Positions 30,136-63,590 of a DNA stretch of 64,000 bases are shown here, in pieces; position 1 is the stretch's first letter; each line of letters begins with the position of its first letter. The notes under the pieces were generated by a model that was not told the DNA's origin, ran no database searches, and saw only the letters and a list, made by a program, of their open reading frames with translations. The translations under genes were made by a program, and so were the position numbers. The stretch is from contig OX597818.1 of NCBI GenBank assembly GCA_951406725.2, positions 118,854,001 to 118,918,000 of the forward strand, written 5' to 3'. This DNA is from Octopus vulgaris (Eukaryota).

Positions 30136-30602
30136 CTTTGATACTTGGATACTTTGATAAGTTTCGGCCATTATTATTCCAGGCCATGTCTAACTTAATA
30201 GCACCACCTGGTGAAGAAGTCTTTCAAGTCAGAATTTGGGCACTATGGCCCACTCAAGTAGAGAGTTATTGTTTACAGAGACATATCCGGGTGTAGGGGG
30301 TTTATCCGGGATTTCTTGAAGGAATCTGTCCAAAGACTTCTTGAACCCTATAGGGTCAGTTTCTGTTTTAATGTGTTTTGGTGTAATGTTAAAGAGAGCG
30401 GGGCCAATTGAGGTGAAATAATTGTGCCGTATTGTTGTTATGAGATGAGAGTACGATTTTTGTTTTGGGCGGATGGCACGGGGCCCAAGCCTTGGATGTA
30501 CCTTAAAGGTGATGCCAACATCATTTGGGCAATGCTGATGGAATATTTTCCACATCATGCAGATGATGTAGCGCTCACGACGACGATGTAGCGCTCACGA
30601 CG
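30136..30602 (-). mobile_element. Family A 5'-truncated copy A5
   Basis: ORF end ...EWAIVPKF*, 3' UTR with private variants, 8-bp repeat tail. Confidence 0.95.
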
Positions 30603-30681
<79 letters not shown>

Positions 30682-30687
30682 TATATA

Positions 30688-32201
30688 TGATTGATTGATT
30701 GATTGATTGATTCTAGTTTCAGCTTATGAGCTGTGGTCATGCTGGGACACCGCCATTTGGTGTTGCTACTTGGTTTCACTTCATGGAGGCTTTCTAGCAA
30801 CTGCTATTTGGTGCATGAGAGAGTTCGATGCAGCTGCCCTCATCTGCCCCTCCTGCCGTGAAGTTGGTTCATCTGGGACACCTGACAGGAAGAGATCCAG
30901 CTTCATTTTAAAGACATCTGTATCCACCCCATGCAGGTCTCTCAGGTTCTTCGGGAGGATATTGAAGAGCTGTGGGCCTCGGAAGCCCAGGCTATCACAG
31001 AATCTTGTCCTACATCTTGATGGCAGGTTTGGAGTCCTAGGCACCACGCAGTGGCGCCCAGTTCTGGCATTTGCGTAACTCTCGATGCCAAAGTTCAGGA
31101 CACTTCCCTCCAGGATCTTCCAGATGTATATTATGGCATATCTTTCCCGCCTACGCTCCAGGGAATATAATTTTAATCTCTTGAGTCTTTCCCAGTAGCT
31201 TACATTCTGCATAGAGGCTATCTTCTTTGTGTAGCTTCGTTGGATCGCCTCAAGTTCTGTGATCAACTTGACACTGGATGGTGACCATAGCTGAGAGCAA
31301 TAGTCAAAGTGGCTTAGGACAAGTGTCTTCCAGAGGACCATCATGGTTTCTTGTTCTCTTGTTCTAAAGGTTCTAAGAATCCATCCAGCCAGCCGTCTAC
31401 ATTTCATTGTCAGTTTAGCAACATGTACATGAAAGGTCGCGTCATCACTCATGTGAATACCCAAGTCACGCACTGATTGTGCCTCTGGGATTGCAATCCC
31501 TCCGGGTCCAGTGTATTCATTGGGTATTGCATTCAGTTTTGCATGCTGATAGTATAAAGCTTGAAACTTTCCAGCATTGAACTGCATGCTATTCTTTTTC
31601 AGCCCACTTGTATATTTCGTCCAGCTCACATTGCAGGTGTTTAGTGTCCTCAGGGTTCTGTATTGCCTGTGAAACTTTTGTATCATCTGCATAACTTGTG
31701 ATCGTGGCTCTCTGCGTGGCTGAGGGCATGTCTGAGAGGGCCATTATGAACAGTAGTGGTCCCAGAACAGTGCCCTGCGGGAACACCGCTCACTATTTGT
31801 GTGTTAATGGAGGTGGCCCCATTGGCTACTACCACCTGACTTCTATCCTTCAGAAAGTCAAGAAGCCATTCTCCCAGTTTTCCAACTAGGTTGAGATCAC
31901 GCAGTTTGTGACATATCATTCCATGATCGACTTTATCAAAGGCCTTTGCAAAGTCGAGATATATCACTTCCACATTTGAGTGGTTGAGCAGCCGTTTCAG
32001 CACCCAGTCATAGTGTTGTAGGAGCTGAGTTAAACAGCTTCTCCTGGTCGGAAACCATGTTGGGTGTCGGGCAGCAAGTCATTCTCTTCAAGGAAGGTGA
32101 TCAGCTTCCTTCTGACTATTCGTTCCATGACCTTGCTGATGTGTGAGGTCAGAGAGATAGGTCTATAGTTCTTGGCTTCCGCTCTGCTACCTCCTTTTGA
32201 A
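30688..32201 (-). mobile_element. Family B (subfamily 2) 5'-truncated copy B3
   Basis: RT ([17 protein letters not shown]) and C-terminal region; (ATCA)n tail; diagnostic NAGKF/PNEY variants. Confidence 0.95.
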
Positions 32202-34861: not shown

Positions 34862-36189
<1,328 letters not shown>

Positions 36190-36208: not shown

Positions 36209-39200
36209 TTGGATTAACTGTTGAAGTGGACGGACGTCTATTTGTTTCTCTCCCAAGTCAGTAGCAAGCTACACAGCTTCAAAACTAACTGACCTTAAAT
36301 ATATATATATTTGTAACCACGTGTTTGCCTACAAACCCGTAAGTACGTTTTCATTTAACTACAAATTGTTATATACACCTGTTTTTCTTTTAATATCCTC
36401 AAACAACCAAATAATCAAAAACTCACACCCTTAAGAGAGAACATTTATATATATATACACTTCTTTAACTCCCAAGAAAGAATATATATATTTTCAAAAA
36501 TCAAAAGGAAAACAAACAAAAGAAAAACAAACATGACTAACTTGCAGGCCTGCAACAGACGAAATTGGTCTGATAACGAAATTGATGTTTTAATAAACAC
36601 ATGGTTCTCTCTTTCCCAAACAGAAAATCTAAATGTCTTGTGTTTGAATGAGATTGCCGAAAAAACATCACAAGTGGTCAACACACGATCCGTCAAACAG
36701 ATTCGTAGCAAGTTGAAACATATCGAAGTATCTTTCAAACTGATAAGAGGCCATTATGAAAAGCTTCTACATATTTTCACAGTTCAAGAACAACAACAGC
36801 TAGAAAATCAGCAGCCACAACAACAACAACAACAGAATGAGCCACTCCTGGTTCCCAGCACAATGGCTGACCCTAACATCGGTCAAGCACAACAACAACA
36901 ACAACAGCCACAGCAACAAGAACAACAACAGCCACTCCTCAACTCTAGCTTACTAGATGATTCACTAAATGCCAGTATCTTTTCACCGCTCTCACAGCAA
37001 CCACCACAATTATCATCATCATCATCACCACCGCTGCCACCATCGTCTTCTATCACCAAAAATACCAACAGAAAACCAAATAAGAAACCACTGCCCTCTT
37101 CCCCCACATCACCACCTCAATACTACTGCAGTAACAAAAACTTAAAGAAACATAGGAAGCAGAATGCGCCCCCCACGGCACAAACAAGAAATCCCCAAAT
37201 ATGCCGCTATTCACTGCGCCAGAGACTCTGCACAAATAGTGACTGCATCTTCACGCATCTACCCGGCACTAGACGCACTACTGGCCAAGGCCAAAGCACG
37301 CATCCCACAATAACATCAACACCACCAAATAGTAAATCGAAATTCAAAACACACACAACTCGGAGTCCCAAAATCTGCCGGTATTCCCAACGTGAGAGAA
37401 CATGTCTACTGAGTGACTGTCCCTTCACTCATCTTCCAGGGACCCGACGCACAAACAGAAACGGGGCCTCAAGCCAACACACAAACCTGAATAACAATAA
37501 AAATAGAAACACACCATGCTGCAGTAATGCTGGTCCAGTCTTTTCAGGAAGACACAAAAACAACAACAACAAAAGTGGAAACTACAACCCTATCCAACAG
37601 TGCAACCACACCTCCAGCCAAAAACTGCTCCCTAAGCAGGAAAATTCTTTATGCCATGTTGAACATGGCAAAAGAGATACACAAAAACATTCTAGCCATC
37701 ACTCAACACCATCCTATGCTATTACCCCAGTGCACCAATTCCCCACATTGCTGCCACTAACACACACAAAAAATCCAAGCCCCCTGCAACAGTCAAAACC
37801 AGCCACTACACTAACCTCCACATTCCTACTCAATGCACAAGGTGTCAGCCCTTCCATCAATGCACAAAAATGGAAGGTCCAATTCATTGAAGACTGGGTT
37901 GGTAACCATTCACACCACATCCCTTTCTTCATTCTCACTGAGACCCACCTTGACAACTCCCACTTGGAAGCCGAAGTGAGAGTGAAGAATTTCACAACCA
38001 TCCGCGCGGATATCGGCAGGAGGAAGGGTGGAACTGCTATTTTCCTGCATGATTCATTTACGGCAGATGGAAATAGTATATTCTCCAACTACTGTGAATC
38101 AGTCACCGTGCACAACAAAGCCAATGACTGACAGTAATTGGGCTCTATAGGCCGCCCCAAACACCCATACTGTGCTTTAAAGAATGCCTCAACAGCATTA
38201 AGTGCTTTATTCAACAGTGCCATTCTAGCAACATACTCATGATGGGAGACTTCAATCTACCCTGTGTTGACTGGACTACAAACTGTTTGAAACCAAGCAC
38301 TCCCGCCTCAACCGCTGACAAAGAAGCAGCAGAGTCACTTTTCGACTTTACGAATGAGTTTTTCTTGTCCCAACTTGTCCTTGCACCAACAAGACATCAG
38401 AACATTTTGGACCTAGTGTTTAGTAACCACACTAACACTATACATAACGTTACAGTGGAAAAAACCCTTCTTTCAGACCATGACATGGTTCTCTGTAACA
38501 TGAAATTCCACCAGCCGAAAGCTAATCCTAGTGACCTTCCTCCAGCCCACCCATTTGACAACATGGATCTCCATAATGCCAACTGGGATGCAATCAGGAA
38601 CGAGCTATCACATGTTGACTGGTCCTTTACACATACACACATCTCCACCAACCATAAAACATCTTGGCAGATCTTTGTAGACACCGTCACAGACATATGT
38701 GCAAAACACTCCCCACCAAGACCTGTGAACAAAAAGTGCAGAATCCCCCAAAACAGAAAAACCATTATCAGAAAAATACAAAAGAACAAACAAAAAAATT
38801 AACAAACTAAAGTACTGCCAACAGCAACACACACATTCGACGGCTATCGCACTGCTTGAATCCAAAAAATATAACCTCCAACAATGCATGAAGACCCTCA
38901 TCAATAACCAAAGATCAGCTGAGGAGAAGTGGGCCATTGAAAAAATCAAACTCAACCCCAAAGTGTTCTTTTCATTTGCGAGGAAACGCAGGGTCACTGT
39001 CTCCACTGTAGGCCCTCTAATTGATGAAACTGGCACTCTCCAAGATAATGCCAAATCCATGGCCGCGATACTGCAGAAACAATACTGCTCTGTTTTCAGC
39101 AATCCTGATATGGCCGATCTGGGCTGTATCAGTGATGTCAACCCCCAACACACTATATCGGACATAACGTTTAGTGCCCCTGATGTCTTAGCGGCGATAA

Positions 39201-40831
39201 ACGAAATAAAACACAATTCAGCAGTAGGCCCCGATAGGTTCCCTGCTTGTGTCCTGAAGGTGTGTCGACACCAACTTGCATCTCCCCTTGCTAATCTGTG
39301 GAGAAACTCACTGGATGCTGGCTATATTCCTAAAAAACCTTCTGTCCCAGTCTGTTGTCCCAGTTTTCAAAAAGGGAAACAAGTCCCTTGCAGTGAATTA
39401 CCGTCCGATCTCACTCACCTCTCATATCATCAAGGTATTTGAGAGGGTGGTGAGATCTCGAATAACCCAATTTCTGGAAAGCAACAGACGGCTGATCTCC
39501 AACCAACATGGGTTCCGTAATGGAAGGGACTGCCTAACGCAGCTCCTGCATCACTTTGAGGACATTTTGAGAGCTTTGGGAGAGGGCTCCAACACCGATG
39601 TCATCTACCTTGATTTCAGTAAGGCCTTCGACAGGGTCGATCACAAGATCCTATTGAAAAAACTATCCAACATTGGTGTCTCTGGAAAGTTACTGAAATG
39701 GATCAAGTGTTTCCTGACAGACAGATCTCAACATGTTGTAGTTGAAGGGGTAAAATCAAGCCCAGCCAAAGTCAGTAGTGGCGTTCCGCAAGGCACTGTG
39801 CTGGGCCCACTTCTTTTCATCATCTACATTAATGACATTAATGACATCATCAAGCACAGCAACATAAAAATCTTTGCAGATGATTCCAAGCTCCAGAAGA
39901 TAATAAATGAGGCGAGTGACCGGACATGCCTTCAGTCAGATCTACTGGCTGTTATCCAATGGGCAGAAAAAAAATTATGCTGCTGAACGAGGATAAATTT
40001 GAGTTAATCCACTTTGGAAAAGAGGATGCCCTGAAACCCCCATACTCCCTTCCTTCAGGTGAAACTCTCGTGGCATCCGACAACATCAGAGACTTGGGAG
40101 TAATTGTGGACAACAACATAAGCTGGGCCACTCATATAAACACCAAAGTTGACATGGCCCGCAGAATGTGTTCCTGGATTCTCAGAACTTTCCAGTCGAG
40201 AGATATCCACACCATTATCCTTCTCTTCTCCACTTTTGTCCGACCCCACCTTGAATACTGTTGTCCACTGTGGTCTCCCCACACAAACAAAGTATCATAA
40301 AAGTTGAAGCACCTCAAAGGGCAATCACAAAAAAGATAGATGGTATGACAGGCCTCGACTATTGGGGTCGACTAAAAAGCTAAAACTTTATTCTCTCCAA
40401 CGTCGCCGTGAGCGCTACATCATCTGCATGATGTGGAAAATATTCCATCAGCATTGCCCAAATGATGTTGGCATCACCTTTAAGGTACATCCAAGGCTTG
40501 GGCCCCGTGCCATCCGCCCAAAACAAAAATCGCACTCTCATCTCATAACAACAATACGGCACAATTATTTCACCTCAATTGGCCCCGCTCTCTTTAACAT
40601 TACACCAAAACACATTAAAACAGAAACTGACCCTATAGAGTTCAAGATGTCTTTGGACAGATTCCTTCAAGAAATCCCGGATAAACACCCTACACCCGGG
40701 TATGTCTCTGTAAACAATAACTCTCTCCTTGAGTGGGCCATAGTGCCCAAATTCTGACTTGAAAGACTTCACCAGGTGGTGCTATTAAGTTAGACATGGC
40801 CTGGGCCAATAATGGCCGAAACCTATCAAAG
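36209..40831 (+). mobile_element. Family A full-length copy A8 with private substitutions
   Basis: 5' end TTGGATTAACTG; ORF 36533..40757 broken by frameshifts; single TATCAAAG tail unit. Confidence 0.96.
36533..40757 (+). pseudogene. Family A polyprotein (Myb-like, CCCH x2, APE, RT), frameshifted
   Basis: ORF 36533..38131 runs uninterrupted from the Myb-like domain into APE motifs (LLNAQG, FILTETHL); downstream pieces carry MGDFN, SDH and FADD. Confidence 0.88.
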
Positions 40832-41241
<410 letters not shown>

Positions 41242-41590
41242 ATAACTTGGCAAATCACTCACAAAACGTAGAAATTGTTACTTTATAGACGCGTACCTGG
41301 ATATTTGCTTATATATATATCAAGTTTTGACACAAAGATCTCTTTCTGCCGAAATGCACGTGGAATCTTATATATATATAAGTACCCAAATTCCTGTTTA
41401 TATATATACAAATTCTTGTTACTGTTAATTTCGTTATATCTATTATCTATAAATTACCTGTTACTCTGTTTATATATATATATATATATATCTATATATC
41501 CATGCATGTGTGTGTGTGTTAGTAGTAGAATCGTATTGTAGTTTATCTTAAGAGACATTGTCTGTAGCGAAATAAATATATATTGCCATT

Positions 41591-41622
<32 letters not shown>

Positions 41623-42441
41623 CTTTGCTTAAACTGTAAACCTCCTGGCGTGTTTTCTTTCAGCTGTTTTATTATTATTATTATTAGAAGTATAGTCGCA
41701 TATATTAGAAGTATAGTATTAGTTATGTTATAGAAGAATTTGTCTGTTGCGGCGGACAAACGTATATATTCCCTTTTCTCTTTTCCTCTGCTTAGATATA
41801 TATGTATATGTATTGTATATGTATGTGTGTGTATGTATTATATGTATTACAAACTCTGTAAAATCTCTTGGCTTGTTTTCTTTCAGCTGTTTTATTATTA
41901 TCACTTGTTAAATATATGTGTGTGTATATATGTGTGTGTGTTATATATATATGTGTGTATGTATATACTACATATATATATATAAACTCTGTAAAACCTC
42001 CTGGCCTGTTTTCTTTCTTTCTTTTCTTTTTCTTTCAGCTGTTTTATTTTATTTTATTTTTCATTTTTATTATTATTATTGTCTTATAATTTCTTATTAT
42101 TACTTTTGTAATATATGTTTATATATGTTTTGTAATATATGCTTATATATTTTCATTATTATTATTGTCTCTTTATATACTCACTTGTTACTCTTGTCTA
42201 TATATGTGCATGTGCACACGTGTGTACATGTGTGTGTGTGTGTGTATACATATGTATGTCCCAATAGCTTCGTTTAGAATTCTATCTGTCTCTTCAGTTC
42301 TCTCCCTTGCGCCCCTCCTTGGCCCAATAGTCTTTTTAGATCTCTCTGTTGCTGCTTCTCTGTCTCTCCCTTTGCGCTTTCTCTCCTGTCTATCTCAGCT
42401 CTCTCTCTAGAGGCTTTCTCTATCTTCCTTCCAGCACTCAG

Positions 42442-42742
42442 TATCTCCTCTTCCTCTTCTCTCTTGCTCTCTTCTCTTGGCTCCCAATCTCTCCTTAAGT
42501 GCATGGACGCTCTCTTTCTCTATTACCCCCCTACCCCCCCTATTGCACTATTGGATTAATATAACTTAATATAATTAGATAGATAGATAGATAGACAACA
42601 TATCTCTCCTCTTCCTCTTCTCTCCTGCTCTCTTCTCTTGGCTCCCAATCTCTCCTTAAGTACATAGACGCTCTCTTTCTCTATTACCCCCCTACTATTG
42701 GATTAATATAACTTAACATAATTAGATAGATAGATAATATAT
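42442..42742 (+). repeat. ~160-bp direct tandem duplication just upstream of the family B ATG
   Basis: TCTCCTCTTCCTCTTCTCTC...GGCTCCCAATCTCTCCTTAAG...GGATTAATATAACTTAA...AGATAGATAG occurs at ~42442 and ~42601. Confidence 0.9.
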
Positions 42743-42747
42743 CAAGA

Positions 42748-45700
42748 ATGTCCAGAGCTTGGAAACGTGATGAACTGGTGTGGTTCCTGCGAGGATGGCA
42801 ATGCGCTGACGGAGAAAGTCCAAGTAACATAATTGCGGCAGCACTAAAGAACAAAGGATTCAAAAGGACATCAGCACAAATAGAGCGGAAGAGGCAAGAG
42901 TTCGTACGCTCATACGCACTTGTCAGATCGCACATAAACACACTGGATGCCATTTTTAACAGCGAAAAACGCGAACAAAGTAAAGATGGCAAGGATGGAG
43001 ACGTGGGCGCAGATGAGGAGGGTCACCCCCACCTGGTGGACGCCCAGGAAGAAAACTCCAGCGAGAGGCCTGCCCGGGAGGTGAACCCAGGTACGGATGC
43101 TCCTACCGGCTCCAAAAGCCGTGGACATGGAGATGAAGAGGCCAAAAAAAGAGGAAAAACTGAAGCTAAAACTCAGACAAAGCCAAGGGACAAGGCAGCC
43201 AGGGACAGAGGCAAACCTAACTGTCCATATGCCAAAAAGGATGGAAACAAGCAGCGCACACGGGTATGTAGGTTCTACCTGAGAGGTGCCTGCCGGCATG
43301 GAGAGGAAGGTGCAGGCTGCCGCTTTGCACATCCGGGACCCTGCCACAGAAACCAACCACCGAAAGGAAATGGGATGGACCACGCATCACCGCCCCAAAA
43401 CGGAGGTACGCAGATGTGGTGCGTACCACAAACCACCAACGTGTTGTTGAAAGGGCAGCTGCTGAGCAGGAATCTTTTTGTGCATGGCACAAAAGATTGT
43501 ACAGCAGCTAACCTGGCTCCATCAGGCTCAGGCTCGCAGATGGAACTGCCCACGGTTCACAAGACCGCCACAGCAGATGGACCCAGGGTGGACACCACCG
43601 GCAACAGCATACACCTCACCTCGATGCTCCTACTGAACATCAGAGGACTTACTAACACACAGTAACAGGACAAAAGTCCCGTTCCTGAGAGACTTTGTCG
43701 CATGCAATCAAGCCTTATGCATAGCACTCACAGAAACGCATCTGAAACCGGACATAGCAGATGCGGAATTACACATACCACAGCATGTTGTACTACGGAC
43801 CGACAGGAAAGAAAGAAGTCATGGAGGAGTTGCTATGTACATCCGTGGGGACCTCACACCCCAGGTCCTTTTGTCATACTCAAACTCGGTGTGTGACACA
43901 CTAATTGTACACATAAGGCAACTTGATGTAGTTGTGTGTGCTACATATCGCCCTCCAGATGCCCCAAGTCATATGGGCAAGTTTGAGGACTGCCTTTTAA
44001 AAATAGAAGAAGTTCTAACCACATTAGAACAACACATAAGTGTACTTCTCATGGGAGACTTCAATCTACCGAATGTCAGATGGCCCGAGGGCCTTTCTCT
44101 CCCAGGAATGACAAGATGTGAACGAGGACAGGCGAGGTCCCTCCCTGAACCTCACCAACACCCTGTACATGGAGCAAGTAATACTCCAACCAACCAGAGC
44201 GGGTAACACACTGGATCTCTGCTTCACAAATAATATGGATCTCATCCATAATGTGAAAGTGACACCGACACTACTCTCGGATCACAACATGGTAGAGCTG
44301 ACCATGTACGGGCCAAAGAGAGCACGGACATGCAGCCTACAAGAAACCCTCAAAGTCTTTCCAGCTTGAACTTCAATAAGGCAAACTGGAAACAAATTGA
44401 GAAAGAGATCCTCAAACAAAACTGGCCTGAATGTCTCTCCTCGCCGGACATCGACATGATACTTCAACAATTCATGTCTGTAATGCAAGCCATATGCTAC
44501 AAATGTGTCCCAGAGAGAAAGGCCACTGTACACAAGAACAAAATCCCCAGAGAGAGAAAAATTTTAATGAGACGGCGCACAAAAATCTCAAATCGCCTAA
44601 ACAAACAAATTGAAAGCAGTGAAAAGTCCCGCCTGAAAATAAAACTGTTGGAAATTGAAAATTGTCTGCAACTCTCCCATGAGAAGGAAAGAGCAGACAA
44701 AGAAGCCTGGGCTATAGACAACATAAAAACTAACCCCAGAGCTTTCTACAGGTATGCCAAAGAAACAGCTACGGTGCACTGTAGGATAGGGCCACTCCTC
44801 TGAAAAGGATGGCACACTCACAGGAAAACCAATGAGGGTAAGTGAAATACTGAATGAACAATTCAAGAGTGTTTTCACTCCACCCCTTGGGCATTTCCAA
44901 ATCAGCAATCCAACTGACTTTTTTACCACTGCAGATATAGAATCAGAGGCGGCGACGTTAAATTACATCGATATAAAGGAAGATGATGTAATAAAGGCTA
45001 TAGATGAAATGAAAATAGACTCAGCTATTGGCCCCGATGGATTCCCGGCAATCCTCCTAAAAGTATGTAAGAGAGTCTTAGCAAGACCACTGCAGTTCCT
45101 CTTTCAGAGCTTCCTTGCAGCTGGCAAACTTCCAAGAAAACTGAAGGAAGGTAAAATATGCCCTATTCATAAGGGAGGTAGCAGAGCGGAGGCCAAGAAC
45201 TACAGACCTATCTCTCTGACCTCACACATCAGCAAGGTCATGGAACGAATAGTCAGAAGGAAACTAATCACCTTCCTTGAAGAAAATGACTTGCTGCCTG
45301 ACACCCAACATGGTTTCCGACCAGGAAGAAGCTGCTTAACTCAGCTCCTGCAGCACTATGACTGGGTGCTGAAACAACTGCTCAACCACTCAAATGTGGA
45401 AGTCATATCTCGACTTCGCAAAGGCCTTCGATAAAGTCGATCATGGAATGATATGTCACAAACTGCGTGATCTTGGCATAGTTGGAAAACTAGGAGAATG
45501 GTTTCACGACTTTCTGAAGAATAGAAGTCAGGTGGTAGTAGCCAATGGGGCCACTTCCATTAGCACGCAAATAGTGAGCGGTGTTCCACAGGGCACTGTT
45601 TTGGGACCACTACTGTTCATAATGGCCCTCTCAGACATGCCCTCAGCCACGCGGAGAGCCACGATCACAAGTTATGCAGATGATACAAAAGTTTCACAGG

Positions 45701-46585
45701 CAATACAGAACCCTGAAGACACTAGGCACCTGCAATATGAGCTGGACGAAATTTACAAGTGGGCTGAAAAGAATAGCATGCAGTTCAATGCTGAAAAGTT
45801 TCAAGCTTTATACTATCAGCATGCAAAACTGAATGCAATACCCAAGAAATACACTGGACCCGGAGGGATTGCAATCCCAGAGGCACAATCAGTGCGTGAC
45901 CTGGGTATTCACATGAGTGATGACGCGACCTTTCATGTACATGTTGCTAAACTGACAGTGAAATGCAGACGCCTGGCTGGATGGATTCTTAGAACCTTTA
46001 GAACAAGAGAACAAGAAACCATGATGGTCCTCTGGAAGACACTTGTCCTAAGTCACTTTGACTATTGCTCTCAGCTATGGTCACCATCCAGTGTCAAGTT
46101 GATCACAGAACTTGAGGCGATCCAACGAAGCTACACGAAGAAGATAGCCTCTATGCAGAATGTAAGCTACTGGGAAAGACTCAAGAGATTAAAATTATAT
46201 TCCCTGGAGCGTAGGCGGGAAAGATATGCCATAATATACATCTGGAAGATCCTGGAGGGAAGTGTCCTGAACTTTGGCATCGAGAGTTACGCAAACGCCA
46301 GAAACTGGGCGCCACTGCGTGGTGCCTAGGACTCCAAACTTGCCATCAAGATGTAGGACAAGATTCTGTGATAGCCTGGGCTTCCGAGGCCCACAGCTCT
46401 TCAATATCCTCCCGATGAACCTGAGAGACCTGCATGGGGTGGATACAGATGTCTTTAAAATGGAGCTGGATCTCTTCCTGTCAGGTGTCCCAGATGAACC
46501 AACTTCACGGCAGGAGGGACAGATGAGGGCAGCTGCATCGAACTCTCTCATGCACCAAATAGCAGTTGCTAAAAAGCCTCCATGA
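42748..46585 (+). pseudogene. Family B polyprotein (~1280 aa once frameshifts are corrected): Myb-like, CCCH, APE, RT
   Basis: MSRAWKRDELVWFLRGW...RTSAQIERKRQEF; CRFYLRGACRHGEEGAGCRFAH; reads in frame into APE motif LLLNIRGL; later [27 protein letters not shown]. Several 1-2 bp indels. Confidence 0.88.
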
Positions 46586-46670
46586 AGTGAAACCAAGTAG
46601 CAACACCAAATGGCGGTGCCCCAGCATGGCCACAGCTCATGAGCTGAAACTGGAATCAATCAATCAATCA

Positions 46671-51537
<4,867 letters not shown>

Positions 51538-54500
51538 CTTTGATACTTTGATACTTTGATAGGTTTCGGCCATTATTGGCCCAGGCCATGTCTAACTTAA
51601 TAGCACCACCTGGTGAAGTCTTTCAAGTCAGAATTTGGGCACTATGGCCCACTCAAGTAGAGAGTTATTGTTTACAGAGACATATCCGGGTGTAGGGGGT
51701 TTATCCGGGATTTCTTGAAGGAATCTGTCCAAAGACTTCTTGAACCCTATAGGGTCAGTTTCTGTTTTAATGTGTTTTGGTGTAATGTTAAAGAGAGCGG
51801 GGCCAATTGAGGTGAAATAATTGTGCCGTATTGTTGTTATGAGATGAGAGTGCGATTTTTGTTTTGGGCGGATGGCACGGGGCCCAAGCCTTGGATGTAC
51901 CTTAAAGGTGATGCCAACATCATTTGGGCAATGCTGATGGAATATTTTCCACATCATGCAGATGATGTAGCGCTCATGACGACGTTGGAGAGAATAGAGT
52001 TTTAGCTTTTCTAGTCGACCCCAATAGTCGAGGCCTGTCATGCCATCTATCTTTTTTGTGATTGCCCTTTGAGGTGCTTCGACTTTTTTGATACCTTTTA
52101 TTGTGTGGGGAGACCACAGTGGACAACAGTATTCAAGGTGGGGTCGGGCAAAAGTGGAGAAGAGAAGGATAATGGTGTGGATATCTCTCGACTGGAAAGT
52201 TCTGAGAATCCAGGAACACATTCTGCGGGCCATGTCAACTTTGGTGTTTATATGAGTGGCCCAGCTTACGTTGTTGTCCACAATTACTCCCAAGTCTCTG
52301 ATGTTGTTGGACGCCGCGAGAGTTTCACCTGAAGGAAGGGAGTATGGGAGTTTCAGGGCATCCTCTTTTCCAAAGTGGATTAGCTCAAATTTATCCTCGT
52401 TCAGCAGCATATTGTTTTTTTCTGCCCATTGGATAACAGCCAGTAGATCTGACTGAAGGCATGTCCGGTCACTCGCCTCATTTATGACCTTCTGTAGCTT
52501 GGAGTCATCTGCAAAGATTTTTATGTTGCTGTGCTTGATGATGTCATTAATGTCATTAATGTAAATGATGAAAAGAAGTGGGCCCAGCACAGTGCCTTGC
52601 GGAACGCCACTACTGACTTTGGCTGGGCTTGATTTTACCCCTTCAACTACAACATGTTGAGATCTGTCTGTCAGGAAACACTTAATCCATTTCAGTAACT
52701 TTCCAGAGACACCAATGTTGGATAGTTTTTTCAATAGGATCTTGTGATCGACCCTGTCGAAGGCCTTACTGAAATCAAGGTAGATGACATCGGTGTTGGA
52801 GCCCTCTCCCAAAGCTCTCAAAATGTCCTCAAAGTGATGCAGGAGCTGCGTTAGGCAGTCCCTTCCATTACGGAACCCATGTTGGTTGGAGATCAGCCGT
52901 CTGTTGCTTTCCAGAAATTGGGTTATTTGAGATCTCACCACCCTCTCAAATACCTTGATGATATGAGAGGTGAGTGAGATCGGACGGTAATTCACTGCAA
53001 GGGACTTGTTTCCCTTTTTGAAAACTGGGACAACAGACTGGGACAGAAGGTTTTTTGGAATATAGCCAGCATCCAGTGAGTTTCTCCACAGATTAGCAAG
53101 GGGAGATGCAAGTTGGTGTCGACACACCTTCAGGACACAAGCAGGGAACCTATCGGGGCCTACTGCTGAATTGTGTTTTATTTCGTTTATCGCCGCTAAG
53201 ACATCAGGGGCACTAAACGTTATGCCCGATATAGTGTGTTGGGGGTTGACATCACTGATACAGCCCAGATCGGCCATATCAGGATTGCTGAAAACAGAGC
53301 AGTATTGTTTCTGCAGTATCTCGGCCATGGATTTGGCATTATCTTGGAGAGTGCCAGTTTCGTCAATTAGAGGGCCTACAGTGGAGACAGTGACCCTGCG
53401 TTTCCTCGCAAATGAAAAGAACACTTTGGGGTTGAGTTTGATTTTTTCAATGGCCCACTTCTCCTCAGCTGATCTTTGGTTATTGATGAGGGACTTCATG
53501 CATTGTTGGAGGTTATATTTTTTGGATTCAAGCAGTGCGATAGCCGTCGAATGTGTGTGTTGCTGTTGGCAGTACTTTAGTTTGTTAATTTTTTTGTTTG
53601 TTCTTTTTATTTTTCTGATAATGGTTTTTCTGTTTTGGGGGATTCTGCACTTTTTGTTCACAGGTCTTGGTGGGGAGTGTTTTGCACATATGTCTGTGAC
53701 GGTGTCTACAAAGATCTGCCAAGATGTTTTATGGTTGGTGGAGATGTGTGTATGTGTAAAGGACCAGTCAACATTTGATAGCTCGTTCCTGATTGCATCC
53801 CAGTTGGCTTTATGGAGATCCATGTTGTCAAATGGGTGGGCTGGAGGAAGGTCACTAGGATTAGCTTTCGGCTGGTGGAATTTCATGTTACAGAGAACCA
53901 TGTCATGGTCTGAAAGAAGGGTTTTTTCCACTGTAACGTTATGTATAGTGTTAGTGTGGTTACTAAACACTAGGTCCAAAATGTTCTGATGTCTTGTTGG
54001 TGCAAGGACAAGTTGGGACAAGAAAAACTCATTCGTAAAGTCGAAAAGTGACTCTGCTGCTTCTTTGTCAGCGGTTGAGGCGGGAGTGCTTGGTTTCAAA
54101 CAGTTTGTAGTCCAGTCAACACAGGGTAGATTGAAGTCTCCCATCATGAGTATGTTGCTAGAATGGCACTGTTGAATAAAGCACTTAATGCTGTTGAGGC
54201 ATTCTTTAAAGCACAGTATGGGTGTTTGGGGCGGCCTATAGAGCCCAATTACTGTCAGATCATTGGCTTTGTTGTGCACGGTGACTGATTCACAGTAGCC
54301 GTTGGAGAATATACTATTTCCATCTGCCGTAAATGAATCATGCAGGAAAATGGCAGTTCCACCCTTCCTCCTGCCGATACGATCCGCGCGGATGGTTGTG
54401 AAATTCTTCACTCTCACTTCGGCTTCCAAGTGGGAGTTGTCAAGGTGGGTCTCAGTGAGAATGAAGAAAGGGATGTGGTGTGAATGGTTACCAACCCAGT

Positions 54501-56186
54501 CTTCAATGAATTGGACCTTCCATTTTTGTGCATTGATGGAAGGGCTGACACCTTGTGCATTGAGTAGGAATGTGGAGGTTAGTGTAGTGGCTGGTTTTGA
54601 CTGTTGCAGGGGGCTTGGATTTTTTGTGTGTGTTAGTGGCAGCAATGTGGGGAATTGGTGCACTGGGGTAATAGCATAGGATGGTGTTGAGTGATGGCTA
54701 GAATGTTTTTGTGTATCTCTTTTGCCATGTTCAACATGGCTAAAAAAGAATTTTCCTGCTTAGGGAGCAGTTTTTGGCTGGAGGTGTGGTTGCACTGTTG
54801 GATAGGGTTGTAGTTTCCACTTTTGTTGTTGTTGTTTTTGTGTCTTCCTGAAAAGACTGGACCAGCATTACTGCAGCATGGTGTGTTTCTATTTTTATTG
54901 TTATTCAGGTTTGTGTGTTGGCTCGAGGCCCCGTTTCTGTTTGTGCGTCGGGTCCCTGGAAGATGAGTGAAGGGACAGTCACTCAGTAGACATGTTCTCT
55001 CACGTTGGGAATACCGGCAGATTTTGGGACTCCGAGTTGTGTGTGTTTTGAATTTCGATTTACTATTTGGTGGTGTTGATGTTATTGTGGGATGCGTGCT
55101 TTGGCCTTGGCCAGTAGTGCGTCTAGTGCCGGGTAGATGCGTGAAGATGCAGTCACTATTTGTGCAGAGTCTCTGGCGCAGTGAATAGCGGCATATTTGG
55201 GGATTTCTTGTTTGTGCCGTGGGGGGCGCATTCTGCTTCCTATGTTTCTTTAAGTTTTTGTTACTGCAGTAGTATTGAGGTGGTGATGTGGGGGAAGAGG
55301 GCAGTGGTTTCTTATTTGGTTTTCTGTTGGTATTTTTGGTGATAGAAGACGATGGTGGCAGCGGTGGTGATGATGATGATGATAATTGTGGTGGTTGCTG
55401 TGAGAGCGGTGAAAAGATACTGGCATTTAGTGAATCGTCTAGTAAGCTAGAGTTGAGGAGTGGCTGTTGTTGTTCTTGTTGCTGTGGCTGTTGTTGTTGT
55501 TGTTGTGCCTGACCGATGTCAGGGTCAGCCATTGTGTTGGGAACCAGGAGTGGCTCATTCTGTTGTTGTTGTTGTTGTGGCTGCTGATTTTCTAGCTGTT
55601 GTTGTTCTTGAACTGTGAAAATATGTAGAAGCTTTTCATAATGGCCTCTTATCAGTTTGAAAGATACTTCGATATGTTTCAACTTGCTACGAATCTGTTT
55701 GACGGATCGTGTGTTGACCACTTGTGATGTTTTTTCGGCAATCTCATTCAAACACAAGACATTTAGATTTTCTGTTTGGGAAAGAGAGAGCCATGTGTTT
55801 ATTAAAACATCAATTTCGTTATCAGACCAATTTCGTCTGTTGCAGGCCTGCAAGTTAGTCATGTTTGTTTTTCTTTTGTTTGTTTTCCTTTTGATTTTTG
55901 AAAATATATATATTCTTTCTTGGAAGTTAAAGAAGTGTATATATATATAAATGTTCTCTCTTAAGGGTGTGAGTTTTTGATTATTTGGTTGTTTGAGGAT
56001 ATTAAAAGAAAAACAGGTGTATATAACAATTTGTAGTTAAATGAAAACGTACTTACGGGTTTGTAGGCAAACACGTGGTTACAAATATATATATATTTAA
56101 GGTCAGTTAGTTTTGAAGCTGTGTAGCTTGCTACTGACTCGGGAGAGAAACAAATAGACGTCCGTCCAGTTCAACAGTTAATCCAA
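51538..56186 (-). mobile_element. Family A full-length copy A9 (~4.65 kb), nearly intact
   Basis: 5' UTR ~325 bp; ORFs 54633..55862 and 51628..54663; tail (TATCAAAG)3. Confidence 0.97.
51628..55862 (-). CDS. Family A polyprotein (~1410 aa): Myb-like, CCCH x2, APE endonuclease, RT; one homopolymer frameshift at ~54745
   Basis: 409-aa and 1011-aa ORFs are split only by an A6 run that is A4 and in frame in copy A1; APE catalytic motifs (ETHL, GDFN, SDH) and RT FADD are intact. Confidence 0.88.
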
Positions 56187-57100
<914 letters not shown>

Positions 57101-57715
57101 TTTTTGCCCGACCCCACCTTGAATACTGTTGTCCACTGTGGTCTCCCCACACAATACAAGGTATCAAAAAAGTCGAAGCACCTCAAAGGGCAATCACAAA
57201 AAAGATAGATGGCATGACAGGCTCGACTATTGGGGTCGACTAGAAAAGCTAAAACTCTATTCTCTCCAACGTCGTCGTGAGCGCTACATCATCTGCATGA
57301 TGTGGAAAATATTCCATCAGCATTGCCCAAATGATGTTGGCATCACCTTTAAGGTACATCCAAGGCTTGGGCCCCGTGCCATCCGCCCAAAACAAAATCG
57401 CACTCTCATCTCATAACAACAATACGGCACAATTATTTCACCTCAATTGGCCCCGCTCTCTTTAACATTACACCAAAACACATTAAAACAGAAACTGACC
57501 CTATAGGGTTCAAGAAGTCTTTGGACAGATTCCTTCAAGAAATCCCGGATAAACCCCCTACACCCGGATATGTCTCTGTAAACAATAACTCTCTACTTGA
57601 GTGGGCCATAGTGCCCAAATTCTGACTTGAAAGACTTCACCAGGTGGTGCTATTAAGTTAGACATGGCCTGGGCCAATAATGGCTGAAACCTATCAAAGT
57701 ATCAAAGTAAGTAAG
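57101..57715 (+). mobile_element. Family A 5'-truncated copy A10
   Basis: Same truncation point and same variant tail as A2. Confidence 0.95.
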
Positions 57716-57817: not shown

Positions 57818-62335
<4,518 letters not shown>

Positions 62336-63590
62336 TGATTGATTGATTGATTGATTGATTCTAGTTTCAGCTTATGAGCTGTGGCCATTCTGGGGCACCG
62401 CCATTTGGTGTTGCTACTTGGTTTCACTTCATGGAGTCTTTCTAGCAACTGCTATTTGGTGCATGAGAGAGTTCGATGCAGCTGCCCTCATCTGCCCCTC
62501 CTGCCGTGAAGTTGGTTCATCTGGGACACCTGACAGGAAGAGATCCAGCTTCATTTTAAAGACATTTGTATCCACCCCATGCAGGTCTCTCAGGTTCTTC
62601 GGGAGGATATTGAAGAGCTGTGGGCCTCGGAAACCCAGGCTATCACAGAATCTTGTCCTACATCTTGATGGCAGGTTTGGAGTCCTAGGCACCACGCAGT
62701 GGCGCCCAGTTCTGGCATTTGCGTAACTCTCGATGCCAAAGTTCAGGACACTTCCCTCCAGGATCTTCCAGATGTATATTATGGCATATCTTTCCCGCCT
62801 ACGCTCCAGGGAATATAATTTTAATCTCTTGAGTCTTTCCCAGTAGCTTACATTCTGCATAGAGGCTATCTTCTTTGTGTAGCTTCGTTGGATCGCCTCA
62901 AGTTCTGTGATCAACTTGACACTGGATGGTGACCATAGCTGAGAGCAATAGTCAAAGTGGCTTAGGACAAGTGTCTTCCAGAGGACCATCATGGTTTCTT
63001 GTTCTCTTGTTCTAAAGGTTCTAAGAATCCAGCCAGCCAGCCGTCTACATTTCATTGTCAGTTTAGCAACATGTACATGAAAGGTCGCGTCATCACTCAT
63101 GTGAATACCCAGGTCACGCACTGATTGTGCCTCTGGGATTGCAATCCCTCCGGGTCCAGTGTATTCATTGGGTATTGCATTCTGTTTTGCATGCTGATAG
63201 TATAAAGCTTGAAACTTTCCAGCATTGAACTGCATGCTATTCTTTTCAGCCCACTTGTATATTTCGTCCAGCTCACATTGCAGGTGTTTAGTGTCCTCAG
63301 GGTTCTGTATTGCCTGTGAGACTTTTGTATCATCTGCATAACTTGTGATCGTGGCTCTCTGCGTGGCTGAGGGCATGTCTGAGAGGGCCATTATGAACAG
63401 TAGTGGTCCCAGAACAGTGCCCTGCGGAACACCGCTCACAATTTGTGTGTTAATGGAGGTGGCCCCATTGGCTACTGCCACCTGACTTCTAATCCTTCAG
63501 AAAGTCATGAAGCCATTCTCCCATTTTCCAACTATATATACGCAGTTTGTATATATATATATATATATCAAAGGCCTATATATATCACTT
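62336..63590 (-). mobile_element. Family B (subfamily 2) 5'-truncated copy B8
   Basis: 350-aa ORF 62429..63481 with YADD; (ATCA)n tail; 5' end fades into TA. Confidence 0.94.

Follow-up and report, generated by a model that had tools for sequence, protein, structure and literature searches.

For few long interspersed nuclear elements (LINEs) is it settled how the second open reading frame (ORF2) is produced from an RNA that carries two. The question is raised by a 64-kb stretch of Octopus vulgaris DNA (contig OX597818.1; referred to below as the window, whose coordinates are used throughout), in which two LINE families, A and B, occur in 18 pieces that take up 43,940 bases. An initial annotation of element B had claimed that a Myb-like domain, a CCCH zinc finger, an APE endonuclease and a reverse transcriptase (RT) lie in a single open reading frame (ORF), that family A has the same layout and the same (TA)n flanks, and that the module is under selection. 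The local reading is correct: positions 42748-43665 encode 305 amino acids followed by a stop, and one frame holds the peptides that were quoted, the CCCH finger (43267-43332) and LLLNIRG (43627-43647), the first APE motif. The comparison with homologues leads to another layout. B is read here as a CR1-like APE-RT LINE, recently active and now broken, with two ORFs and inserted in (TA)n; that two ORFs are the layout of the family is very probable on the basis of sequence comparison.

Two Overlapping Reading Frames

A profile made from the Myb parts of A and B gave 63 matches among 1.84 billion proteins, 27 of them with one matched stretch and 21 aligned with both A and B. The CCCH finger is intact in three, namely P0154 (371 amino acids), P0159 (289 amino acids) and P0162 (291 amino acids), and the B ORF1 with its Myb and CCCH module is conserved beyond the window, as the initial annotation had expected. 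All three homologues carry a YAD motif and an F-L-x-[MV]-A-Q helix in frame and then end without an endonuclease, on contigs of just 1028-1835 nt that leave the ORF2 region outside view. By tblastn, their similarity to B follows the ATG frame as far as 43335-43353 and resumes in the next frame at 43475-43624 (E 1e-08 to 6e-05), so that the homologous ORF1s leave the frame of the proposed single ORF at about 43340. The ORF1 motifs that are out of frame in B still match these homologues at 34-44% identity, and a -1-frame reading over the C-terminal end of P0154 could give S-M-L-L-L, the peptide found where the B APE region starts. The idea of one open frame from Myb to RT is thus contradicted by all three complete Myb and CCCH homologues, which are stand-alone ORF1s, and by the A copy at 51542-56184, which keeps two ORFs with ORF2 overlapping in the -1 frame.

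The starts of related ORF2 proteins agree with this layout. Among the best 120 of 1509 relatives, 108 have no more than 30 residues before the Asn of APE motif I and 75 begin after that Asn, although these counts hinge on a gene caller's choices. More than 150 residues precede that Asn in only one of the 120, P0033, which is a gene model from Pleurobrachia bachei. When residues 60-265 of P0033 were used for an ORF1 search, only one of 73 candidates was found, P0123, a separate ORF1 of 395 amino acids in which three fingers and the F-L helix accompany a PHD-like part.

The apparent single ORF at 42748-43665 would then be the result of two single-base losses in this copy, one within 43333-43406 and the other in the T-run of the junction, through decay or assembly error. 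Since the B ORF2 has six frame switches within 2.9 kb, two base losses in 0.9 kb of ORF1 are unremarkable. The extra T at about 43650, which was correctly noted to give the stop at 43663-43665, has no counterpart in the B copies at 14.6 kb and 50.5 kb. An alternative B frame at about 43400-43445 was considered as the end of a second finger and was rejected, as it has two stops before the junction. The practical point is that consensus building and error-prone assemblies can produce a false single ORF at this junction.

Eight CR1-like loci found in the scan described below (L004, L007, L018, L020, L021, L031, L062 and L079) have ORF1 and ORF2 in the same frame with a single stop codon between them, and are candidates for read-through or stop-start translation.

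A Slippery Heptamer at the Junction

In A, the overlap contains the heptamer U_UUU_UUA in the ORF1 register, 12 nt past the last stop of the ORF2 frame. The B junction (43463-43480) has the same layout, and the two families have a short DNA motif in common there. The earlier statement that A and B lack DNA similarity stands for the N-terminal region, over which blastn gave no match, but not for this junction motif.

A scan of prokaryotic genome contigs gave 164 related stretches, of which 80 were kept as loci (L001-L080); the contigs come from prokaryotic genome bins that hold eukaryotic LINE contigs, evidently host contamination. A CCCH cassette is present in four of the 80 (L035, L038, L002 and L025), and three of these four combine a -1 overlap with an in-register heptamer: T_TTT_TTA in L035, T_TTT_TTG in L038 and A_AAA_AAC in L002, located 9, 18 and 21 nt after the last -1-frame stop, respectively. 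U_UUU_UUA and A_AAA_AAC are both named as -1 shift sites in the available part of PMC5009743. Across 74 control ORFs, 354 of 57,730 codons carry an in-register heptamer, which gives a chance of ~0.048 for one within eight codons and of ~1e-4 for three of three if independent. The sites are not independent, since L035, L038 and L025 share an origin in related contigs and are placed outside the A/B clade. In L008 and L033, where ORF1s of other types precede a -1 overlap, no heptamer stands in the ORF1 register.

Proposed Expression of ORF2 and Its Alternatives

From these sequences it is somewhat probable that ORF2 is made as an ORF1-ORF2 fusion by -1 ribosomal frameshifting, in the manner of gag-pol. 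ORF1 would be made in excess, while a minority of ribosomes would slip by -1 on the heptamer, over the F-L codons, to give a fusion with Myb, CCCH, APE and RT. As in established LINE biology, this fusion would nick the target and, priming at the short 3' tail, reverse-transcribe the RNA that encodes it, which would leave 5'-truncated copies. The fused Myb-CCCH-APE-RT protein may therefore exist, as a minority frameshift product, and if frameshifting is true, the working enzyme would carry the ORF1 domains. Overlapping ORFs with a suggested frameshift have been described for some other non-LTR (long terminal repeat) elements, and the idea has precedent. A conserved in-register heptamer also offers a cheap and direct test of retrovirus-like frameshifting in a LINE.

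Several observations weigh against frameshifting. The T-run has five T rather than six in both B copies that cover the junction (the reported copy and the one at 50.5 kb). In L025, seven T at the corresponding position fuse the two ORFs, and its ORF1 helix is found in the other frame. U_UUU_UUG, the heptamer of L038, is a weaker shift site, and L035, L038 and L025 form one set of related contigs that falls outside the A/B clade in the RT trees. With simple folds, a downstream stimulatory structure was not significant at six sites (z -1.96 to +1.21), nor was it in one longer B window (z -2.05). The lack of a detected structure would be in line with a separate translation of ORF2 by re-initiation or from a non-AUG start, as in other LINEs, in which case the T-run would just encode the F-L codons of a conserved helix. 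An AUG lies a short way ahead of APE motif I in B, L002 and L025, and mammalian LINE ORF2 and TART are described without a shown frameshift in the available text of PMC5009743. However, A, L035 and L038 have no AUG before the motif-I Asn, slippery codons (T_TTT_TTR) are used in just 27 of 278 control F-L pairs, and in L002 the equivalent position is taken by another canonical heptamer and lacks F-L. Separate initiation is considered unlikely. A further possibility is that the slippage occurs in polymerization: RNA polymerase or the element's RT would add or drop U, and in-frame RNAs would make the enzyme and be preferentially copied, giving fused genomic copies. The T-run is a specific hotspot: it varies across the four full-length A copies, each time by an amount that fuses the frames, and over 4.3 kb no other indel separates the two cleanest copies. 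The seven T of L025 would fit as well, as would a second sense-strand run of six T in B (44919-44924) that varies among copies (6, 5, 6 and 4), while A-runs of six or more hardly vary; strand-polarised slippage at T-runs is possible. However, with common flanks and a divergence of 0.9-2.4 substitutions per kb, several of these copies may be one insertion assembled repeatedly, with read errors as the differences. The heptamer is moreover always in the ORF1 codon register, which polymerase slippage does not need, and L002 uses an A-run. This explanation is distinctly improbable.

The last alternative returns to the initial annotation: A and B would truly be single-ORF elements, whose fused Myb-CCCH-APE-RT frame is kept by selection and is possibly a recent derived state in the host. 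B is open from its ATG to motif I in its only good full-length copy, and the five T are found in both B copies. Three of the four full-length A copies also read as fused (T-run changes of -2, -5 and -2), one of them with an open frame of 1382 codons, and other A runs of five or more bases are nearly all stable, which weighs against the frameshift reading as well. On the other hand, the frame of B would have to change at two separate points, with the loss of its best-conserved ORF1 motifs from the frame. The three complete Myb and CCCH homologues are all unfused, and no two of the three fused A alleles have the same sequence. The fused A copies fit read error at one repeatedly assembled locus, family polymorphism or polymerase slippage. 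Since the window copies are not independent of one another, the frame states of single copies need outside support. A single ORF kept by selection is thus highly improbable, given a family layout of two ORFs in a -1 overlap and fused readings that each carry an altered junction T-run.

The Myb and CCCH Module

The N-terminus of ORF1 begins with a W-x(11)-W pattern and has a three-helix helix-turn-helix fold, as expected of Myb/SANT/trihelix domains. The Pfam model Myb_DNA-bind_4 matches A (E 2.4e-05) and B (E 0.061), both below the gathering score, while the homologues P0136 and P0146 score above the gathering threshold. The alignment of the A and B proteins, which had been suggested as a check, gave 25% identity over 73 amino acids of the Myb part (E 0.002). 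In a structural model of B residues 1-81, four helices were predicted with a mean pLDDT of 88.7, and the best structural matches were the Myb domain of RAD (Z 7.7; root-mean-square deviation 2.6, 58 aligned residues), ARR1 (Z 7.6), GT-1 (Z 7.5) and LUX (Z 7.3), all of them from the Myb/trihelix family. Z values under 8 are moderate and carry no evidence on function. A Foldseek search against the PDB gave no match at E 0.001, the top rows being TEAD4, GT-1 and RAD. Taken together, the alignments and the predicted fold indicate that the Myb/SANT-like domain in A and B is real and more than a chance resemblance.

The claim of a common domain layout holds in that Myb and CCCH are present in both families, but not for the fingers themselves: A has two, with the spacing C-X8-C-X4-C-X3-H, and B one, with C-X7-C-X8-C-X3-H. 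The two fingers of A resemble the third finger of the three-finger cassette found in relatives, and the finger of B resembles the first. Fifteen of the Myb-profile matches were looked up, of which four were named, all from Octopus (one from O. sinensis and three from O. vulgaris). Longer proteins containing the B N-terminus were not found among 1719 candidates, which is weak evidence, and a query of the ESM Atlas with B residues 1-215 gave no usable match.

Association with (TA)n

The 18 pieces have 36 ends, of which 34 could be evaluated (one lies at the window edge and one at an N gap). All 34 lie directly against TA tracts, and at least nine distinct 5' truncation points are among them; in the two full-length B pieces, it was the TA array itself that defined the 5' boundary. 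Because all evaluable ends, with their varied truncation points, abut TA, the repeat is target context and not part of the element's 5' end. The earlier claim of the same flanking repeat is borne out by every evaluable end of A and B, but not in relation to the ORF itself, as the B ATG lies 1.5 kb from the nearest upstream TA array. The pattern at both junctions was seen in a TA-rich window with partly duplicated copies, and target-site duplications are invisible in TA.

(TA)6 or more was found within 600 nt after the RT ORF in only two of 47 related loci, and the non-Myb loci L035 and L038 are not among the two. These flank data agree with a link between Myb and TA in a comparison that contains A and B copies and no flanks of Myb-type homologues. 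It is probable that the Myb domain is not the source of the association, which would come from an endonuclease that prefers flexible AT DNA, from TA arrays that tolerate insertions or, in part, from assembly joins at such arrays. TA tract makes up 69% of the non-element bases in the window, large blocks of which are duplicated or inverted, and many unrelated DNA-binding folds resemble the Myb model at Z under 8. Against this origin, none of the 34 ends lies in the ~6 kb of other sequence, and TA flanks are rare among the related loci and are lacking in the two non-Myb CCCH loci with a 3' end. It is doubtful, on the other hand, that a widespread group of CR1-like elements with a CCCH ORF1 uses -1 frameshifting and that the octopod addition of Myb tethers a DNA-binding domain to the endonuclease and so steers insertion into (TA)n. 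A Myb and CCCH ORF1, which is absent from the ORF1 survey in the main text of PMC4120745, would offer a testable route to microsatellite targeting in TA-rich genomes.

Classification and Relatives

Pfam Exo_endo_phos and RVT_1 were found in both A and B, which places them among the APE-type LINEs. The copies have common 3' ends, variable 5' truncation and no terminal repeats, and the 3' tails are short tandem repeats rather than poly(A): (TATCAAAG)n in A and (AATC)n in B. No RNase H or restriction-like endonuclease domain was found after the RT (Pfam, E 0.1; intact A ORF2 and B RT ORF). Likewise, RRM with CCHC, Tnp22, PHD (with or without RRM) and esterase gave no Pfam match in the ORF1s of A and B, although weak RRMs could escape such searches. 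We take A and B to be CR1-like from their anatomy and from general knowledge of the group; the trees hold unnamed relatives only. Between A and B, the identity of ORF2 is ~42% in the RT region and 26% in the APE region.

Two RT trees were built, a quick one with 112 rows (every fourth protein relative and three more, with 77 locus ORFs) and a careful one with 23 rows. A, B, L002, P0033 and the protein relatives form one group (100/100 in the 23-row tree, 98 in the quick tree), in which B pairs with L002 (98/97) and A with P0009 (86/88). L002 has a PHD-like ORF1 and no Myb match. A and B are thus not sisters in the RT tree; when they were forced to be, the fit was worse but was not rejected (p-AU 0.115). 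That Myb and CCCH mark one old (TA)n-associated lineage, as the initial annotation proposed, is no more than possible. The Myb domain common to both could go back to an ancestor, with losses in other elements, or could have passed between elements in a single host. The A/B group does not include L035 and L038, which implies either a great age of the CCCH ORF1 and its junction or their transfer from one RT lineage to another.

The nearest named RT relatives of A in the searched set are from ctenophores (Pleurobrachia and Bolinopsis), at 51-58% over 430 columns. They belong to CR1-like elements of ctenophores and marine metagenomes, represented by P0033 and by the P0004 cluster with its Bolinopsis microptera member. 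P0123, also of this kind, has the same CCCH finger family and F-L helix as A and B. Unlike A and B, the ORF1s of P0033, P0123 and L002 have a PHD-like domain, two or three fingers and no Myb match. The similarity to ctenophores may reflect horizontal transfer or database bias. In L075 (3-1589), an ORF upstream of a LINE combines a PHD finger with a NADAR domain (Pfam E 2.2e-10).

Comparison with Known Systems

R2 and TRAS resemble A and B in that a Myb-like DNA-binding domain occurs in a retrotransposon that inserts in a repeated target. R2, however, is a single-ORF element with a restriction-like endonuclease and C2H2 fingers, and TRAS, of the R1 clade, carries its Myb-like part in ORF2, whereas in A and B the domain is the N-terminus of ORF1.

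The closest anatomical match is the CR1 group of the Jockey superfamily, in which there are two ORFs, an ORF2 with APE and RT only, a short tandem 3' tail and frequent 5' truncation (available part of PMC4120745), all as seen here. A PHD-bearing ORF1, known from this group, is also found in the present relatives P0123 and L002. In that survey, ORF1 types I-V of Metcalfe and Casane (2014) are set out in a domain table of PHD, RRM, CCHC, Tnp22, esterase and zf/lz, and the words CCCH, Myb, frameshift and overlap do not appear in its main text. Under its scheme, a CCCH or Myb and CCCH ORF1 would be unclassified type V.

The retroviral and LTR gag-pol junction, such as U_UUU_UUA of the human immunodeficiency virus (available part of PMC5009743), is similar in having an X_XXY_YYZ heptamer in the ORF1 register at the start of a -1 overlap. 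As here, the downstream gag-pol ORF often has no AUG of its own. It differs in that the present element is a LINE in which frameshifting is inferred from sequence, and in which simple folds did not detect a 3' stem-loop or pseudoknot stimulator. HeT-A and TART of Drosophila are non-LTR elements tied to a repeated target, like A and B. HeT-A, the only non-LTR element named as frameshifting in the available text of PMC5009743, requires the shift for expression, but inside gag, and it has no RT. In TART, the ORFs lie 37 nt apart, and the same text gives no -1 heptamer that joins ORF1 to APE-RT in either element. For O. vulgaris, 13 recently active CR1 families are listed without description in the available part of PMC13282606. 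In the full-text literature searched (without Repbase/Dfam, supplements and subscription journals), a CCCH or Myb ORF1, a slippery ORF1/ORF2 junction and TA targeting in CR1-like elements were undescribed.

Features and Copies in the Window

Table 1. Positions of the features of elements A and B in the window.
Position	Strand	Feature	Remark
18206-22165	-	Degraded duplicate of 41247-46665, including flank	No separate B insertion
40832-41241	.	(TA)n array upstream of the full-length B copy, after the 3' end of an A copy	
41242-42747	+	Putative B 5' untranslated region (UTR), 31% GC	Full extent as part of the element is putative
42748-42984	+	ORF1 start: Myb/SANT (trihelix-like) three-helix domain and fourth helix	
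43267-43332	+	CCCH zinc finger, C-X7-C-X8-C-X3-H	Resembles first finger of relatives' three-finger cassette
43333-43406	+	Interval with first inferred ORF1 frame break in the reported B copy	
43407-43421	+	YADVV motif, out of frame with the ATG (third frame)	YAD[AV]V / YSDAV in homologous ORF1s
43463-43480	+	ORF1/ORF2 junction	Stop 43463-43465, then T-run 43475-43479 where A and relatives have the slippery heptamer
43475-43636	+	ORF1 C-terminus proper (F-L-x-M-A-Q helix)	Other frame than 42748-43665; stop 43634-43636 overlaps first APE codons
43627-44300	+	APE endonuclease region of ORF2	Frame-broken
45165-45909	+	Reverse transcriptase region of ORF2	Frame-broken; ORF2 end at 46582
46586-46673	+	Short 3' UTR with small hairpins and (AATC)n tail	
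46674-47299	.	(TA)n array (626 bp) at the B 3' end	Tail-to-tail with next B copy
47308-50494	-	5'-truncated B copy	Begins exactly at junction T-run
51628-54759	-	A ORF2, 1043 codons stop to stop, APE and RT	First Met at codon 205; motif-I Asn at codon 67
54633-55862	-	A ORF1, 409 amino acids: Myb-like, Q/P-rich linker, two CCCH fingers, F-L-A-M helix	
54741-54747	-	U_UUU_UUA heptamer in ORF1 register, 12 nt into -1 overlap of A	Encodes F-L

The putative 5' UTR of B (1.5 kb) contains a short subrepeat three times (41634, 41856 and 41989) and a 161-bp tandem duplication (42444-42736); the subrepeats may be promoter-like monomers. The only other copy that covers this region, 18206-22165, was considered as a second B insertion and was rejected because the flank of the reported copy is repeated there too. 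On its minus strand, coding stretches are replaced by TA-like runs, which would resemble the poorly polished long-read sequence typical of base calls after long TA arrays. An Rfam scan of the whole window gave no match. The 3' ends of A (51545-51632, minus strand) and B (46584-46673, plus strand) have short motifs in common around small hairpins, followed by different tails. A common 3' hairpin is not claimed, as the z values (-2.52 for A, -1.38 and 0.11 for B) came with a poor alignment.

Much of the window is duplicated. The block 8925-24483 is a reverse repeat of 38938-56184, positions 1-5758 repeat 51888-57713, and three A copies diverge from one another by just 0.9-2.4 substitutions per kb. 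These inverted and direct duplications of element-TA-element blocks keep identical truncation points, and may represent redundant assembly or segmental duplication. The 5' truncation at the junction T-run, for instance, is found both in 14600-17552 (plus strand) and in 47308-50494 (minus strand), which count as one B insertion.

A second B subfamily (30694-32195, 62342-63550 and 60059-60238) differs from the main one by ~3.5% and by 1.2% among its members. Its member at 60059-60238 (minus strand) is an internal B fragment with TA on either side and without the 3' end of the element. At 30565-30603 and 35852-35880, element sequence is duplicated over short lengths at 5' truncation junctions, which suggests template re-priming during insertion.

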